Part shown: in pieces, positions 8,338 through 37,368 of the stretch
Numbering within the stretch: position 1 is the stretch's first letter
How the letters are laid out: each line of letters opens with the position of its first letter
Virus record (IMG/VR): IMGVR_UViG_3300009370_002293
Coordinates: 1 to 64,000 of that record
Length of the DNA: 64,000 nucleotides
Source of the DNA: a virus
Strand: one strand, 5' to 3'
Notes under the pieces: model-generated
Seen by the model: only the letters and a program-made list of their open reading frames with translations
Databases searched by the model: none
What the model was told of the DNA's origin: nothing
Position numbers and translations under genes: made by a program

Positions 8338-9069
8338 TTAATTAAGTTTTGACCGATTGGCAAGCACAAAACCGCTCTCGATTGCGTCATGGATAGCGGT
8401 GACGTTTGCTTTGTAAAGCAATCCAACAATTTTCCCCATAGGATCACGAAACCGCAAATCACTTTCATCGCCGTTGATAACCTCTGACCCGAAATCTTCA
8501 ACGGGCAACGCGCCAGCGTACACCACCGCAACATTCGCGCCCCTTTTCAAAAGATCACGCACAACCGAATCGGAGGTGTCCTCACTACGCGAAAACGTCA
8601 AATGATAGTTTTTCGGCAACTTGCCATTGCACCAATCTACCATCCGAGATAATGACTTAGTGTAATCATAAAATTGAAGCTCTGGAAAATGCTCCATAAT
8701 AGACGCGCCATCAATTTTGATTTTGTGCCACGGCAAATCACTTGTGCCGTTTAATCTTTCGCACGGAATTAAATCACGTTTTTTCGCCCGTTTAATAAAT
8801 GCGGCGGTTTCTTTTTTGAGTTGGGCCATGTACGTCTCACGATCACGCGCAAAAAATATGGTTTTATTCACACGCGCTTGCATAACGGGCGACATACGGC
8901 CACGCCCCGACGTAAACAAGCACGCCGCTCGACAACCTTCACTTGCGTTGGCGCACGTGTTAATTTCGCCGCTCGCATCACTAGGCGCGAGATAAGAGAT
9001 TGCCGTCATGTAACCACGTTGTTGGCCTTTAACGGTTTTTGCGTTTGTGTCGATTCCTAGAATTTGCAT
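8338..9069 (-). CDS. Gp88-like phage protein (radical-SAM-like Cys cluster)
   Basis: C..AS.GC...CL, RLNGTSD, FYDYTK, NYHLTFS and DGD..DLRF-like motifs; TTGACG-N17-TAAAAT promoter at 9080-9108. Confidence 0.8.
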   Translation of the reverse strand: MQILGIDTNAKTVKGQQRGYMTAISYLAPSDASGEINTCANASEGCRAACLFTSGRGRMSPVMQARVNKTIFFARDRETYMAQLKKETAAFIKRAKKRDLIPCERLNGTSDLPWHKIKIDGASIMEHFPELQFYDYTKSLSRMVDWCNGKLPKNYHLTFSRSEDTSDSVVRDLLKRGANVAVVYAGALPVEDFGSEVINGDESDLRFRDPMGKIVGLLYKANVTAIHDAIESGFVLANRSKLN

Positions 9070-9584
9070 AACGAGAGCGATTTTATCAAATGCCGTGGGT
9101 GGCGTCAATACTTTTTTTTTATTCGTCGCCGTACCATTCCACCATTGGCCGCGGATTGGTTGCCGCTTCACACTTGGCGCAATCGCATGGGGCATGGATC
9201 GTGGAACAACCCACGCTTAAAAATATAATAAAAAAGAATAGTAAAATTTTTTTCATTGTTTTAATCGTTGTGTGTAGGATTAGCACTTGTCAAATTATCA
9301 GAAATTTCTTAATTAAATGCAAGGCAAAAAAAGTTTTCGTAAAAAGGGGCATTTTCTCATCCGAGAAAACAGGGGAAAACACGAAAATTCAAACGAGGAA
9401 AACCTAGAAAAACAGGAGGATCCGAAAAAAATTTACCCCACTAAAAATCAAAAAATGGGCGGTAAAAAATATCACAAAATAAGAGGGCGGCGAATTTTGC
9501 CGTTTTTTTAATTTTTTCCTCAAAAACCAAATATTGGACTTTTTTGGATTTTTTGAGATTTTTGGCAATATTCTATTTTTTAAC

Positions 9585-9777
9585 TATATTTCAATATCGC
9601 GCGTTCTTAATTACTTATATTTTAGAATATCGCGTTCTTAATTACACGCCGCTTCCGCTTCCGCGCGCGCCCACACCACAAAAGTATATTTTACAAAATC
9701 AGGTTAGTAATTATATAATATTTTACAATATCCCATTCTTAATTATATAATATTTTAGGAAATCGCATTCCTAATTA
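9585..9777 (+). repeat. 29-bp direct repeat array A (5 copies)
   Basis: degenerate TATATTTT-N9-CRTT-N2-TAATTA at 9585, 9616, 9685, 9717, 9749. Confidence 0.8.
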
Positions 9778-9789
9778 GAAAAAGAAAAA

Positions 9790-9860
9790 GGCCAGTGGTG
9801 TTAAACTACCTCAACTGAAAAAGGCGTCCATGACTCTCTCATGACTCTATTCCACTGACC
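9790..9860 (-). ncRNA. candidate structured RNA, copy 1 (GAGAG-loop three-way junction)
   Basis: GGUCAGUGG/CCACUGGCC outer stem, CAUGA-GAGAG-UCAUG hairpin; covaries with the copy at 12006. Confidence 0.65.
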
Positions 9861-10077
9861 TATCGAGTGCGGGTACGTGGCGGATAACCAAACGCCGAGG
9901 CCGTCACTGATCTCATTTCCGTAACAACTCTAACCGCTCTCTAAATACCCGAGGCATCCTTAAAGGTTTTTGTAAATCCAACGGGCCTCAATAAATTCGA
10001 GATAACCTCTCCTAGCTTCCCATGACTTCACTCACCATCATAAATAATTACACTATTTAGAAGGAGTTAATTAGTAA

Positions 10078-11130
10078 TTAATTCAATTTTGTAGCAGCAG
10101 TTGGCACATCACATGGTTTAGGTAAAACAATCCTTATTGGTGTAGGTTTACTCAATGCCGCCGAGGTCGCCGCAAGGTCGCACAAATATGCTTCTATATT
10201 TTTTAAATACTCTTGGCCTTTTTTAGTTAATGCTCGACCCCCACGACCAATTTCCATAAGGCTATGTTTTTGCAAATACATTTCAAAATCTTTTTGCAAG
10301 CACGACCGTGTAAGACCTGTCTTTGAAGCAAGAAACGTAAGGCTACATTCCTTCTTCTCCTCAAGCAGACGAAGAACTTGCAACTCGATACGACTCAAGC
10401 CCAAGGGTAAAATCCCTAATGCGTGAGAGAGATGCTTCCAATCGTTTTTATTAAAATGATTTTTATTTTTAGATTTAAGAAAAGAAGAAATATGCGTACT
10501 CATTTTCTGTGCCTGACGCGCATTACCCCGAAGCACCGTTGCGATCTCTGGCAGCAGACCATCTTCAAATGTCTTGTCTTGATTTAAACGCTGAACAATT
10601 TCGCCCAACTCATCATACGAATACTCCTCCAGATCAACTCTTTCACACCTGTCCATTAACGCATGAAAAATATCCTGCGCTTCTGTCGTAGCAAACATGA
10701 AAGATTGCCTACTAAAATCAAAATCAATTACATACTCATCATACGAAAAGGTAGTACGATTATGCTCATTAGGATTTAACATAGTCAGCAACGCCATAGT
10801 TACATCCTTGGGTAATTCTGATGCCTCGTCCAAAAGCACGGTACATTCCTGTTGATGCACATGAGGAATAAGAATCTGATTAACAAATTGTTTTATATTC
10901 TTAATTGTTGAGCAATTAATCTCAAGAAAAGGTTTGGCCTTCCCCTTGCCCTTGAGATTCATTTTACTCCCCATCGCCTTGGCGAGAGTAGTTTTGCCGC
11001 ATCCCTTGGGCGCAACAAACATAAGGTGAGGCATCACATTGGTAGCGTGATAATTTTTTAAGTAAAAAGACAAACGCCGTTTGGCAACATCTTGCCCAAC
11101 AATTTTTGGAAACAGTTCAGTAGTAGTCAT
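10078..11130 (-). CDS. ruvB: RuvB-like Holliday junction branch-migration AAA+ ATPase
   Basis: IVGQD, Walker A PKGCGKTT, Walker B LLDEA, FATT, LMDR, RGNAR, C-terminal E.YL...L..GR winged helix. Confidence 0.75.
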   Translation of the reverse strand: MTTTELFPKIVGQDVAKRRLSFYLKNYHATNVMPHLMFVAPKGCGKTTLAKAMGSKMNLKGKGKAKPFLEINCSTIKNIKQFVNQILIPHVHQQECTVLLDEASELPKDVTMALLTMLNPNEHNRTTFSYDEYVIDFDFSRQSFMFATTEAQDIFHALMDRCERVDLEEYSYDELGEIVQRLNQDKTFEDGLLPEIATVLRGNARQAQKMSTHISSFLKSKNKNHFNKNDWKHLSHALGILPLGLSRIELQVLRLLEEKKECSLTFLASKTGLTRSCLQKDFEMYLQKHSLMEIGRGGRALTKKGQEYLKNIEAYLCDLAATSAALSKPTPIRIVLPKPCDVPTAATKLN

Positions 11131-11172
11131 GGTAGTTCAGTTATTATACTCGTAGTTGACGCGAGGTCAAGG

Positions 11173-11412
11173 CTAAAAATCGGTCAAGTCTTCTGACTTA
11201 AATTCGATTGGTGTGTGAGAGTTCATTTCTGCACGACCCTCTTTTGATCCAGTGCTAGTCTCTACACGCTTGCCCGTGATACCATTAGTCTCCGCAAATT
11301 TACGAGAAACTAAAATTAATGCACCCTCTTTAAAAGTCTCATTTAATATACCCAATGGGATTGAAACGAAGCTGGTTGCACCTTTTGTTTTACCCTGTTT
11401 TTTCGTTGCCAT
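11173..11412 (-). CDS. hypothetical protein
   Basis: leaderless ORF after a TTGACT..TACTAT promoter. Confidence 0.7.
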   Translation of the reverse strand: MATKKQGKTKGATSFVSIPLGILNETFKEGALILVSRKFAETNGITGKRVETSTGSKEGRAEMNSHTPIEFKSEDLTDF

Positions 11413-11489
11413 GTCCTCATAGTAGGGACATTTTTGAAATAAGTCAACATTTATTTTTATTTATTTTTAATTACTAAAAAATATAATAT

Positions 11490-11774
11490 TTATTGCGATT
11501 TATGAAAATTTTGATATTTTTCCCTCCAGTTTTCCATTGGTGCAGGAATCTTACGATTTGATTCGGCCAAGCTCATTACCTCTTTAGCAATCTCATCATG
11601 TATTTGGGCCGTTCTACCTCCCGCCTCATCGGCCTCCTCTGGGGTTAATTCTATGACAATTTCCTGTTTCCAAGGAGCAGCATTAGAAACCACATAATTC
11701 CACGCATCCTCGTACCTTAATACCAGACTATTATCTACGGGACGTTTTTTGGTCTTTTTCTTTTGGGCGGTCAT
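11490..11774 (-). CDS. hypothetical protein
   Basis: ORF from MTAQKKK. Confidence 0.65.
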   Translation of the reverse strand: MTAQKKKTKKRPVDNSLVLRYEDAWNYVVSNAAPWKQEIVIELTPEEADEAGGRTAQIHDEIAKEVMSLAESNRKIPAPMENWREKYQNFHKSQ

Positions 11775-11900
11775 GTCATTATTATTTACACTTTTTTTGC
11801 CAAAGTCAAACAAAATCAAAGTGCGCCAAAATATTTTATTTTATTTAAAAATAATCTAAATTAATCATTTTATTTAAAAATCGCGGCTCTTATATTGTGT

Positions 11901-12529
11901 TATATTTTAGTGAATTGCATTAGTAAATAGCACTATATTTTACAAAATCGCATTAGTAAATAAGCTCCATTATATTTAAGGAAATCGCATTAGTAAATAA
12001 GAAGAATAAGTGGTGTTCAATGATGGCACATACGAAGTTAAGCCCGTTCGTAACTCTCTTACGACTCTATTCCACTTATGCAAAACAAAGTAACAAATTT
12101 TTGTTTTATCCGCAAGCTATATTTTGCAAAAAATCATTCATAAATATAATAGTTTTGGCCGCACCAATTTTAATATATTTTAGCTATTTTCATTTGTAAA
12201 TAAGGCTTAATATATTTTGCTTTTTTTCATTCGTAAATAGAATAGGCTTGACATAAAATAAAATAATTTTTAATTTGATTTCACTTCAATGAACCTAAAC
12301 TAAAACTGGTTCTAGTTTAAGTTTGTTATGTATGTATTGAATTAAATAGCATATACTGCATAATAATATATGGAAAAGAATATAATTTTAAATAATTTTA
12401 AATAAATATATTTTTTCCATACCCAATTTGAATAATTATTCTTAATAAATTAAGTTCTTTACTCTATATTTTATACTATATCATTAGTAAATAGAAAGGG
12501 TATATTTTGGGCAAAAGCATTCATAATTA
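11901..12529 (+). repeat. 29-bp direct repeat array B (8 copies)
   Basis: TATATTTW-N9-CATT-N2-TAAWTA at 11901, 11934, 11971, 12118, 12174, 12211, 12465, 12501. Confidence 0.8.
12006..12079 (-). ncRNA. candidate structured RNA, copy 2, with own promoter
   Basis: AUAAGUGG/CCACUUAU stem, CGUAA-GAGAG-UUACG hairpin; TTGCGG-N17-TACTTT promoter just upstream. Confidence 0.7.
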
Positions 12530-12844
12530 AAGAAAAAACGAACAAATCCCACTCATCAAACCCTCTCTGAACCATTCCTTCATTTTCGTTTGTAAAGAAG
12601 GCATCATAGATAATTGATAGTATAAGCGCACACCCTGCAATTCCGATCCAAAGCATATAAAAAGATTCCTTTTTGCATATTACAAGGTAGGTTTTTTTAA
12701 TTAAAGGTAGGTTATGGTAATGTGTCTACTTTTTTAAGTCAGCTATAAGCATAATAAAATCATGCGCCAAACATACAAGCGCAATGCCAACAATAATAGG
12801 TAATACTAAAAGGGCGATCCATGTTACTAAAAAGCCCCAATTAA

Positions 12845-13087: not shown

Positions 13088-14269
13088 CTATTCATAGTCT
13101 CTAATAGCAATCACATAAGGAAAACGAGGTACACCGTCAGGTGTAAGATTAAAATACTTAATCGTAGCCTCTTTGCCTATTAGTGTATCTGCTTTTTTAA
13201 GTAAATCTGCTAGATACTCAAATGATCCTTTTACATTAGAGTGAAATTCTTTACCATTTTTATTCTTAAATTTAAAGTGTTTAATTGTTCCAGCACGATT
13301 ACCATCACCCTCCTCGTAACCAAGAATTTTATATTCTTCATCTACAAACTCTTTTCTTTTAAGCAAAAGAGAAGAACGCTTATTCTCGTAAGGCCCGTCG
13401 AGTCTAATCATTTGACCTTCGTAACCATGCTCAACATATTCTCCATACAATTCGTCGAGATGCTCTTTGCTCTCTACTTCGGTAGTCTCAACAATTACAA
13501 GACAATCTTCTTTGTCTAAACCCAAATTTGGAAATTGAGCATCCAAGATTGAAGTCCTATCAGAAAATGAATCCTTCTCTGTCCAGCACTTGCTTCCTGC
13601 AATCGAATCACCTATTACTGGCGCATCATAAATATGATATTGAATCATTTCCTTACTCTCTGACAAATGTTCATCAGTAAGATTCTGCTTACGAACAAGG
13701 TGAATGATTTTGTTAAAATCATCTTTGTAAGCATGATTATACAATTCGCCATCAAGAACAGCATTGGGATACTTATCAAAAAATGCCCCCAACGCCTCGC
13801 TAATATGCGGTACAGCAGTAATTGGTTTACCAGTACGAGTAAACAATCCATCTTTCATGGCAATGCAACGTATGCCGTCCAGCTTGGGTTGAGAGAATAC
13901 AGGCGCACCAATACCCTCCTCATCAATCTCAAACATTACTTCCTTCTGACGATTCTTGTTCTTGAAGTCCTGTGCAAGCATAGGCTCATAAAAACGCTTC
14001 TTGCTGATATTCTCCACGCTCAAATGGTATCCAGCTTCCAGTTTTTTCTTATGTTTTGCCTCTGCTTCTTTAAGTGCCTGTTCCGCACCAGTAGTAGCGT
14101 TTTTCTTTCCCTCATTCTTACCTTCACAAACAGTCCAGTTGTTTGTGATCTTTTTGCCGTCCTGTTGGCCCGAAATTGTACGATACTTGTTATCCTCAAC
14201 TTCAATCGTCCAAACTTGAGTTTTCCCAATCGTAGTTTTTTTGTAAAGTGTGGGTAATGTATTTTTCAT
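13088..14269 (-). CDS. lig: ATP-dependent DNA ligase
   Basis: PMLA, motif I QPKLDGIR, LDGELY, YEGQMIR, LLKRKEF, PRFP. Confidence 0.95.
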   Translation of the reverse strand: MKNTLPTLYKKTTIGKTQVWTIEVEDNKYRTISGQQDGKKITNNWTVCEGKNEGKKNATTGAEQALKEAEAKHKKKLEAGYHLSVENISKKRFYEPMLAQDFKNKNRQKEVMFEIDEEGIGAPVFSQPKLDGIRCIAMKDGLFTRTGKPITAVPHISEALGAFFDKYPNAVLDGELYNHAYKDDFNKIIHLVRKQNLTDEHLSESKEMIQYHIYDAPVIGDSIAGSKCWTEKDSFSDRTSILDAQFPNLGLDKEDCLVIVETTEVESKEHLDELYGEYVEHGYEGQMIRLDGPYENKRSSLLLKRKEFVDEEYKILGYEEGDGNRAGTIKHFKFKNKNGKEFHSNVKGSFEYLADLLKKADTLIGKEATIKYFNLTPDGVPRFPYVIAIRDYE

Positions 14270-21624: not shown

Positions 21625-21701
<77 letters not shown>

Positions 21702-21705
21702 AAAT

Positions 21706-21792
21706 TGGTAGGGAAAGCGGGACTTGAACCCGCACGAACTAATGTTCGACAGATTTTAAGTCTGTTGTGTCTGCCAATTCCACCATTTCCCC
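21706..21792 (-). tRNA. tRNA-Leu(UAA)
   Basis: cloverleaf with long variable arm, ACAGA-CTTAAAA-TCTGT, encoded CCA. Confidence 0.95.
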
Positions 21793-37004: not shown

Positions 37005-37056
37005 TTAATCTCTATAGTATTATATTTTATTTTAAATAATAAGTCAAAGATTTTTA

Positions 37057-37065
37057 GTGTAATTA
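37057..37065 (+). promoter_or_regulatory. putative phage late promoter GTGTAA
   Basis: GTGTAATTA 14 nt before ATG 37071; recurs at several other sites. Confidence 0.65.
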
Positions 37066-37070
37066 AGAAT

Positions 37071-37355
37071 ATGCCAACTACATATAGCGGAGTGTCGGCT
37101 TTACGGGGAGCAATCCACCAGAGTACAGTAACGGGTGATTTTATGGCAACGGGGGCTGGCGATTCATCATATCAGAGCCAAATCACTGGCCTTCTTAACA
37201 CTGGGTTACAGCCCGACAGAAAAGAGTTGACTAACCATATTGGTCGGGAATATTATAGAAAATTAAACCAACTCGACCTTACCCCAACTTATGAAGATCA
37301 ACTAGACGCAGGATTCAGGCCCACAACTTTCACGGGACTCTATACCGCCCCTTAG
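37071..37355 (+). CDS. hypothetical protein (putative late gene)
   Basis: MPTTYSGV.. after the GTGTAA motif, on the opposite strand to its neighbours. Confidence 0.7.
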   Translation: MPTTYSGVSALRGAIHQSTVTGDFMATGAGDSSYQSQITGLLNTGLQPDRKELTNHIGREYYRKLNQLDLTPTYEDQLDAGFRPTTFTGLYTAP

Positions 37356-37368
37356 TGGGTAAATGATG

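Follow-up and report, generated by a model that had tools for sequence, protein, structure and literature searches.

We analyzed a 64,000-nucleotide (nt) stretch of viral DNA, hereafter the window (positions 1 to 64,000 of the 99.8-kb IMG/VR virus record IMGVR_UViG_3300009370_002293), which carries on its minus strand two copies of a structured RNA motif. On comparative evidence this motif is a three-way junction of ~65-110 nt, and we propose that it is a new RNA class, a label that rests on the lack of an Rfam relative and on a distinct consensus rather than on a new mechanism. The function we favor, at a probability of roughly 0.35, is that of a self-contained "punctuation" (boundary) module that would end, process or stabilize phage transcripts. 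An earlier note, made from the letters of the window alone, had pointed out both copies, and its coordinates and sequence blocks proved exact. The two copies and their helices (P) and junction strands (J) are as follows.

9790-9860, minus strand: RNA motif copy 1 (from sequence and model matches)
9852-9860 with 9790-9798, minus strand: P1 of copy 1, GGUCAGUGG pairing with CCACUGGCC (from sequence)
9846-9851, minus strand: J1/2 of copy 1, AAUAGA
9826-9845, minus strand: P2 hairpin of copy 1, with its GAGAG loop at 9834-9838
9806-9825, minus strand: P3 hairpin of copy 1
9799-9805, minus strand: J3/1 of copy 1, UU-UAACA, where U replaces the usual G at 9803
9779-9789, minus strand: U tract UUUUUCUUUUU, immediately 3' of P1 in copy 1; also U-rich in L231, a related TARA contig
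12006-12079, minus strand: RNA motif copy 2 (from sequence and model matches)
12072-12079 with 12006-12013, minus strand: P1 of copy 2, AUAAGUGG pairing with CCACUUAU (from sequence)
12066-12071, minus strand: J1/2 of copy 2
12046-12065, minus strand: P2 hairpin of copy 2, with its GAGAG loop at 12054-12058
12021-12045, minus strand: P3 region of copy 2
12014-12020, minus strand: UU-GAACA of copy 2

Common to both copies are P1, the block GGAAUAGAGU, a P2 of 5 base pairs (bp) with the GAGAG loop, R-AC and a P3 hairpin; in each, (U/G)AACACC leads into the 3' strand of P1, and the 13-mer GTGGAATAGAGTC is present exactly twice. Two covariance models recover both copies. Model R1, built from nine sequences, scores copy 1 at 62.1 bits and copy 2 at 82.1 bits. 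Model R2 was built from metagenome sequences only, with the window copies left out, and is thus independent of the window; it scores the copies at 55.2 bits (E 5e-12) and 78.4 bits (E 3e-18), respectively, and a search of the whole 99.8-kb record with this model returned these two copies and no third. Single-sequence folding gave z = -3.6 for copy 1 and z = -0.85 for copy 2; it is therefore weak for copy 2, for which the comparative evidence carries the assignment. The earlier description of the copies as a covarying structured RNA is borne out by the R2 matches and by compensatory changes across the family.

A candidate third copy in the window, at 37150-37352 (minus strand), was rejected on a fold z score of 0.05 and on the silence of R1 and R2 even with filters off. 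This look-alike shares GG-UAUAGA-GU and ...UGAAUCGCC with the motif and has a P1-like GGGGCGG/CCAGCCCC; its ends, GGGGCGG-UAUAGA-GU... and ...UGAAUCGCC-AGCCCC, enclose a 150-nt insert. It sits in a 364-nt gap (37005-37368) and is overlapped by a plus-strand open reading frame (ORF) of 134 amino acids.

IMG/VR, metagenomes and a single GenBank phage together yielded more than 110 distinct members in a covariance-model search for relatives that was run alongside pattern scans. The pattern scans were built from the shared blocks and their matches filtered for the full architecture; ~20 IMG/VR relatives were found first, and degenerate patterns added more. R1 gave 59 matches in 57 sources and 22 further in a second set. 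The metagenome pattern scan returned at least 120 loci, on the first 100 of which R1 gave 115 matches (97 distinct), and parsing of the matches left 114 distinct cores. Among 185,579 bacterial and archaeal species genomes, the motif pattern occurred in three contigs only, all from metagenome-assembled genomes, and we therefore regard the motif as essentially phage-only. The public GenBank carrier is AP013544.1 (uvMED), an uncultured Mediterranean Autographiviridae phage of the genus Ayaqvirus, in which the RNA polymerase gene begins 12 nt after the motif. No relatives among cultured phages were returned by BLASTN of the motif, and the route through proteins reached only this uncultured phage. 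Six carrier genomes span a GC content of 37-56% and have no common protein family at a BLASTP threshold of 1e-4.

The predicted fold is built on a variable P1 of 5-15 bp (mean 9, up to 15 and more), which is topped by two conserved G-C pairs (GG/CC). Above P1, an asymmetric internal loop of AAU opposite GAACA separates this helix from a covarying A:U junction pair, and P1 is predicted to stack through onto P2. From its base, P2 consists of a G:C pair, a G/A position, a U:R pair, five covarying pairs, a bulged A and, at its tip, a GAGAN loop that is GNRA-like. Between the A:U and G:C junction pairs, the variable P3 hairpin branches off, and the junction strands read AAUAGA(G), A-C and N(2-4)-N-Y-GAACA. 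RNAalifold independently predicts P1, P2 and P3. In all, ~27 nucleotides of the core are invariant.

Covariation supports this fold throughout. In alignment A5, 95.1% of cells are paired, compared with 65.1% in shuffles and 31-42% in slid controls, and 14 of the 16 pairs show compensatory changes on both sides; in A3, with a model of P1 and P2, 94.1% of cells are paired compared with 62.8% in shuffles. The first junction pair, formed by the fourth base of AAUAGA and the Y before GAACACC, is AU in 90 members of A5, GC in 7 and unpaired in none, and in the pattern-derived set, in which R and Y were left free, 105 members carry A/U, 9 carry G/C and none is mixed. The G before the U of "GU" and the final C, both invariant, are able to form the second junction pair. 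At the base of P2, the U of "GU" and the R that follows P2 are 100% paired in A5 (UA 56, UG 34, CG 3, GC 3, AU 1), so that the bulged base is the invariant A. These counts led us to drop the first P2 model, in which GU paired with AC and R was bulged; the drawing in the earlier note, which also had R bulged, must be amended accordingly, with the bulge at the invariant A before C and R paired with the U of "GU".

Covariation extends to a non-Watson-Crick position, where G18/A36 switches to A18/G36 in several lineages and never places G with G; this switch is seen even between copy 2 of the window and its close relative in L231. In that comparison, the base of P2 shows compensatory double changes (U19-A35 to C19-G35 as well as G18/A36 to A18/G36). 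Copy 1 likewise differs from its L231 counterpart by compensatory changes in P1 (GUGG/CCAC to GCGG/CCGC) and in P2 (CAUGA/UCAUG to CACGA/UCGUG). The last base of the GAGAN loop is G in 60, A in 44, U in 9 and C in 1, which makes the loop GNRA-like with one extra base. P3 sequences are very different and cannot be aligned, and a helix of at least 4 bp is found in the right place in 94% of members compared with 41% of shuffles. Relaxing J1/2 in the pattern scan gained one new locus only, which indicates that AAU(A/G)GA is highly fixed. In the upstream copy of a tandem at L174:2818-2885, GA/UC stands in place of GG/CC at the top of P1, and a pair that is otherwise almost fixed thereby shows a compensatory change.

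Two additions to the fold were considered and rejected. A pseudoknot between the P3 loop and GAACA found no support, as UGUU was seen in 27 P3 loops compared with 26.5 expected. Sarcin-ricin, T-loop and kink-turn versions of the internal loop are each at odds either with the covariation of A:U and G:C or with positions that vary.

Searches against known RNAs agree with the earlier statement that the family is unrecognized. Rfam 15 returned two tRNAs only for the whole window and no family for the motif at the gathering threshold, nothing overlapping the motif between 9500 and 12400 at E <= 10, and nothing at E <= 1 on seven relative loci that hold at least nine motif copies. We also rejected a tRNA-like reading, since ARAGORN calls only 21625-21792 and the Rfam tRNA model has no match on the motif; that interval (minus strand) holds the adjacent phage genes for tRNA-Arg(TCT) and tRNA-Leu(TAA) in the ARAGORN output. 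A literature search with the motif sequence as a string returned PCR primers only and no description of the motif. Fremin, Bhatt and Kyrpides (2023; PMC10690425) cataloged objects of the same kind from the same data source: 8,495 covarying IMG/VR candidates, with terminators predicted for 1,241. No description of the motif is given in the text of that article, and it may be among the unnamed candidates of the catalog.

Throughout the family, the motif occupies an intergenic position within an early or DNA-metabolism module and always has the orientation (sense) of its two neighboring genes. Most of the more than 110 relatives have no promoter of their own and are wedged between two genes, often close behind the upstream one: the nearest stop codon lies 20 nt or less from P1 in ~45% of members and 100 nt or less in ~90%. 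The next start codon is more scattered, with a median distance of ~47 nt and a tail to several hundred. P1 runs straight into a U tract (6 or more U in 8) in 24% of members, compared with 2.4% of random positions; an ORF starts 25 nt or less after the motif in 32%, and a separate terminator is present in a few members. The 11-13-bp P1 of the L185 group takes in both the upstream UAG and the next AUG. A promoter-like site stands directly upstream of the motif in L180 and L190, the next gene in L190 being a T7-like RNA polymerase, and the window, the L140 group and L149 have promoter-like sequence behind the motif. In T7-like phages, AP013544.1 included, the motif lies 8-16 nt before the RNA polymerase gene, which we take to be the position of RNase III site R1 in phage T7 (Dunn and Studier).

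At 13 or more of 100 metagenome loci and in L174, copies stand in tandem, 2-32 nt apart; in such pairs, the longer P1 and the U-rich tail belong to the second copy, and a U tract follows the second copy only. Two copies ~2-3.4 kb apart are found in the window, L231, L072 and L257. One contig with tandem motifs has a match to the CRISPR-DR9 repeat at its very end (L248:2424-2460; 37.4 bits, below the gathering score).

The ~200 flanking proteins fall into 113 clusters. Those that can be named belong mostly to replication and recombination (RNA polymerase, helicase, PD-(D/E)XK nucleases, and SbcC-like, SbcD-like, RuvB-like AAA, DUF932, ParB-methylase and PAPS-reductase-like proteins). A specific partner protein was rejected, as none is common to the six carrier genomes and none was found among the flanking genes. 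In one subfamily, the motif stands behind a 475-516-amino-acid protein that has no assigned function, and a conserved hairpin precedes P1 by ~15 nt (at L140:6128-6181 and correspondingly in L030, L076, L152, L156 and L182). The loop of this hairpin, UUCCUUUCC, might base-pair with the motif at the invariant GGAA, and we see in the hairpin a possible second domain or alternative pairing.

In the window, all genes of the region lie on the minus strand. Read along that strand, the order is DNA ligase, an AT-rich gap of ~650 nt with copy 2, two small ORFs, the RuvB-like AAA+ gene, a 217-nt spacer, copy 1, UUUUUCUUUUU and the DUF932-type gene. The features of this region are as follows.

13088-14269, minus strand: DNA ligase gene
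12111-12241, minus strand: three like repeats before copy 2, with two more at ~12458-12531
12110-12115 and 12087-12092, minus strand: promoter-like site before copy 2, TTGCGG-N17-TACTTT (from sequence)
11894-12001, minus strand: three tandem repeats (CTTATTTACTAATGCGATTT..TAAAATATA) directly after copy 2; L231 has four
11490-11774, minus strand: conserved ORF
10078-11130, minus strand: RuvB-like AAA+ ATPase gene (Pfam AAA, RuvB_C, RuvB_N), its stop codon 217 nt before copy 1
9580-9779, minus strand: five like repeats directly after copy 1, interrupted by a GC-rich stretch
8338-9195, minus strand: DUF932-type gene

The order AAA gene, motif, DUF932 gene recurs in relatives, and the RuvB-like AAA family stands upstream of the motif in L171, L167, L297 and others, with 8 distinct members. 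L231 is 83% identical over the region and keeps both RNA copies at the same spacing, the repeats and both promoter-like sites. P1 of copy 1 (9-12 bp) together with the U tract UUUUUCUUUUU looks like an intrinsic terminator, and copy 2 has a merely U-rich tail, UUCUUCUUAUUU. A consensus scan for intrinsic terminators does not call copy 1, because the "loop" of such a terminator is a 55-nt branched domain.

The promoter that the earlier note assigned to copy 2 is present as a site. TTGCGG-N17-TACTTT falls below the threshold of a consensus scan and predicts a start ~5-8 nt before P1; at the equivalent position L231 has TTGACT-N17-TATCAT with a diverged spacer. From this positional equivalence, copy 2 is plausibly its own small transcription unit. 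The accompanying claim that no gene lies downstream did not survive: the ORF at 11490-11774 is on the same strand and starts 230 nt downstream, behind its own promoter-like site (TTGACT-N17-AATAAT), which is conserved in L231. As for the proposal that the motif is trans-acting rather than a riboswitch leader, action in trans is possible, and a cis role at transcript boundaries would fit the family-wide context at least as well.

Clustered around both copies, and almost nowhere else in the 64 kb, are ~13 minus-strand copies of a repeat spaced at 32-37 bp (…TTTAC.AATG………AAAATAT…; CTTATTTACTAATGCGATTT..TAAAATATA). The cluster is kept in L231, and the repeats could be tandem phage promoters or replication-origin iterons. 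Two of those at 11894-12001 match sigma-70 hexamers (TTTACT-N17-TATAAT/TATAGT), and on the plus strand two repeats match TTTACA-N18-TATAAT at 11 of 12 positions. Within the 217-nt spacer (9861-10077, minus strand), the first ~90 nt, around AAAUAGUGUAAUUAUUUAU...GGUUAUCUCG, are kept in L231, and the remainder has been lost or has diverged in that contig; an equivalent spacer is missing from L171 and L167. Between the repeat cluster and the next gene, positions 9300-9570 (minus strand) carry phased A and T tracts, for example AAAAAATCTCAAAAAATCCAAAAAAGTCC, and this stretch looks like a bent-DNA or origin-like region. A strong terminator-like hairpin lies within the phased tracts at 9480-9510 (plus strand).

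Any reading of the motif must explain its strictly conserved junction, its long and stable P1, its boundary position nearer the upstream gene, the frequent U tracts, the tandems, the lack both of gene specificity and of a common phage protein, and the occasional stand-alone copies with a promoter, such as copy 2. In the punctuation reading, P1 would clamp the boundary of a transcript, and a helix as long as this fits a stable clamp better than a switch. Where a U tract follows P1, as in copy 1, P1 would act as an intrinsic terminator and the folded domain would stay on the 3' end of the message. An intercistronic motif would be a processing, stability or translational-coupling mark, and a motif with its own promoter, such as copy 2, would be produced as a free small RNA. 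As the carrier phages have no protein in common, the invariant junction could be the docking site for a factor that all hosts have, such as an RNase, RNA polymerase or similar.

Several points weigh against this reading. Ordinary terminators and stabilizers do not need ~27 invariant nucleotides, and the core would have to do something more. A U tract, a nearby start codon and a separate terminator are all missing in 39% of members, and the enrichment of U tracts may be inflated by AU-rich intergenic composition, since the random-position control is mostly coding. In copy 2, L180 and L190, a promoter-like site immediately precedes the motif, and there is no earlier gene whose transcript it could end. 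Finally, in several lineages (L072/L222/L257, L180/L278, L237/L315) the U tract is followed 11-40 nt later by an ORF with no room for a promoter, which argues for conditional rather than constitutive termination.

So strict a conservation in phages that have no protein partner in common suggests that the RNA catalyzes a reaction, senses a ligand or captures a machine present in every host. It is possible, if doubtful, that the invariant bases of the junction form a catalytic site or a pocket for a ligand, in which case the motif would be a new ribozyme class or a riboswitch-type sensor that cuts or gates phage messages with no help from a phage protein.

One alternative is a riboswitch-like or factor-dependent attenuator: a small molecule or protein would bind the junction, and P1 would close and either terminate transcription at the U tract or bury a start codon. 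The three-way junction with its invariant core, covarying stems and variable periphery is what a conserved aptamer would look like. The 24% of members with a U tract directly after P1, the lineages in which an ORF follows that tract, the AUG within the 3' strand of P1 in the L185 group and the order promoter, motif, gene in L180 and L190 all suit such a device, and tandems with a single U tract after the second copy recall tandem aptamers. Neighboring genes are mostly those of DNA and nucleotide metabolism. The 113 flanking clusters are, however, not the coherent gene set expected behind a 5' leader; the downstream genes belong to many unrelated families, and the motif is nearer the upstream stop codon than the downstream start. 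P1 is also long and stable, no alternative pairing against it was seen, and the gene after copy 2 has its own conserved promoter. We therefore consider attenuation rather unlikely.

Copy 2 speaks for a trans-acting small RNA or decoy, a folded RNA that would titrate a host-universal component such as RNA polymerase, an RNase or a defense nuclease. The position of its promoter is conserved and the next gene has a promoter of its own, and promoters stand directly upstream of the motif in L180 and L190 as well. The family is phage-only, with no gene specificity and no phage protein in common; tandem and double copies would raise the dose, and, with its U tail, a stable P1 has the look of a small-RNA 3' end. 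Most members, however, lack their own promoter or terminator and are squeezed between ORFs, with stop or start codons sometimes inside P1, where translating ribosomes would unfold the structure, and no candidate partner was identified. We judge a decoy role to be unlikely.

A new class of small self-cleaving ribozyme, which would cut polycistronic phage messages without the host, seems quite unlikely. The size, the three stems and the ~27 invariant junction nucleotides are like those of small ribozymes, as are the intergenic distribution in phages with no gene specificity and the several, sometimes tandem, copies per genome, and the lack of a common protein would suit a function that is self-sufficient or uses the host. 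Against this, the hammerhead, twister, twister-sister, pistol, hatchet, hairpin and HDV models have no match even at E <= 10, and the hammerhead core strands CUGANGA and GAAA are absent. Cleavage also does not account for the U tracts or for start codons buried in P1, and a stand-alone copy driven by its own promoter has no obvious need for it.

By analogy with HK022 put, the nascent motif might instead make host RNA polymerase resistant to terminators, an idea we regard as very unlikely. The motif has the appropriate size (~70 nt), copy number (one or two per genome), early-operon setting and sense orientation, is promoter-proximal in copy 2, L180 and L190, and would have in RNA polymerase a universal partner, which fits the absence of a common phage protein. 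It seems, however, to have no similarity to put in sequence or architecture, often stands at the end rather than the start of a transcription unit, and occurs also in T7-like phages, where a single-subunit polymerase reads the later genes. That the motif works as single-stranded DNA, for example as a replication origin or a signal for priming that acts with the iteron-like repeats, is scarcely credible even though both window copies lie in AT-rich, non-coding, repeat-filled stretches inside a replication gene module, because the repeats are not family-wide, the motif is always on the sense strand, many members sit in gaps barely longer than the motif, and the U:G wobbles, which are common (34 of 97 for one pair), would turn into C:A mismatches in the complementary strand and are weak in DNA.

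With more than 110 members and near-perfect covariation that includes the junction pairs, the motif is among the better-supported orphan RNA folds obtainable from sequence alone. Any of catalysis, sensing or the capture of a host machine, if true, would be a new tool in the organization of phage transcripts. The motif is short and modular, occurs in many sequence contexts and lends itself to testing; it could serve as a genetic part should it prove to terminate, cleave or insulate.

Among known systems, the motif somewhat resembles T7 RNase III sites in position and small ribozymes and junction aptamers in build, and on the features compared it could be assigned to none of these groups. HK022 put RNAs, which modify RNA polymerase, consist of two adjacent stem-loops close behind early promoters, without a closing P1; they are similar to the motif in length (~70 nt), in their one or two copies in early operons and in that they could act without a phage protein, whereas the motif is a closed three-way junction that often stands at the end of a transcription unit. 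The aptamers of the purine and glycine classes are alike in having a P1-closed three-way junction, a U tract or start-codon overlap in some members, and tandems (~13% of loci for the motif); unlike riboswitch aptamers, the motif has no coherent downstream genes, no alternative-pairing expression platform and no Rfam match, its P1 is long, and it lies nearer the upstream stop codon. The small self-cleaving ribozymes of phages (hammerhead, twister, pistol, hatchet) differ from it in core sequence, and no Rfam model for them matches at E <= 10; in size, in a multi-stem junction with an invariant core and variable stems, in intergenic placement without gene specificity and in several copies per genome, they are alike. 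T7 RNase III signals, irregular hairpins that form an unbranched double-stranded stem of ~two turns for cleavage by RNase III, have no long invariant core. The motif differs by its third helix and its ~27 invariant nucleotides: P1 and P2 could stack to ~17-25 layers, but the third helix branches off. Like the T7 signals (R0.3 to R18.5, for example R1 before gene 1), the motif is intercistronic in phage operons, on the sense strand, in early or DNA-metabolism operons and before the RNA polymerase gene; it would likewise have two coaxial helices parted by an asymmetric internal loop, and it could leave a stable hairpin on the upstream message.

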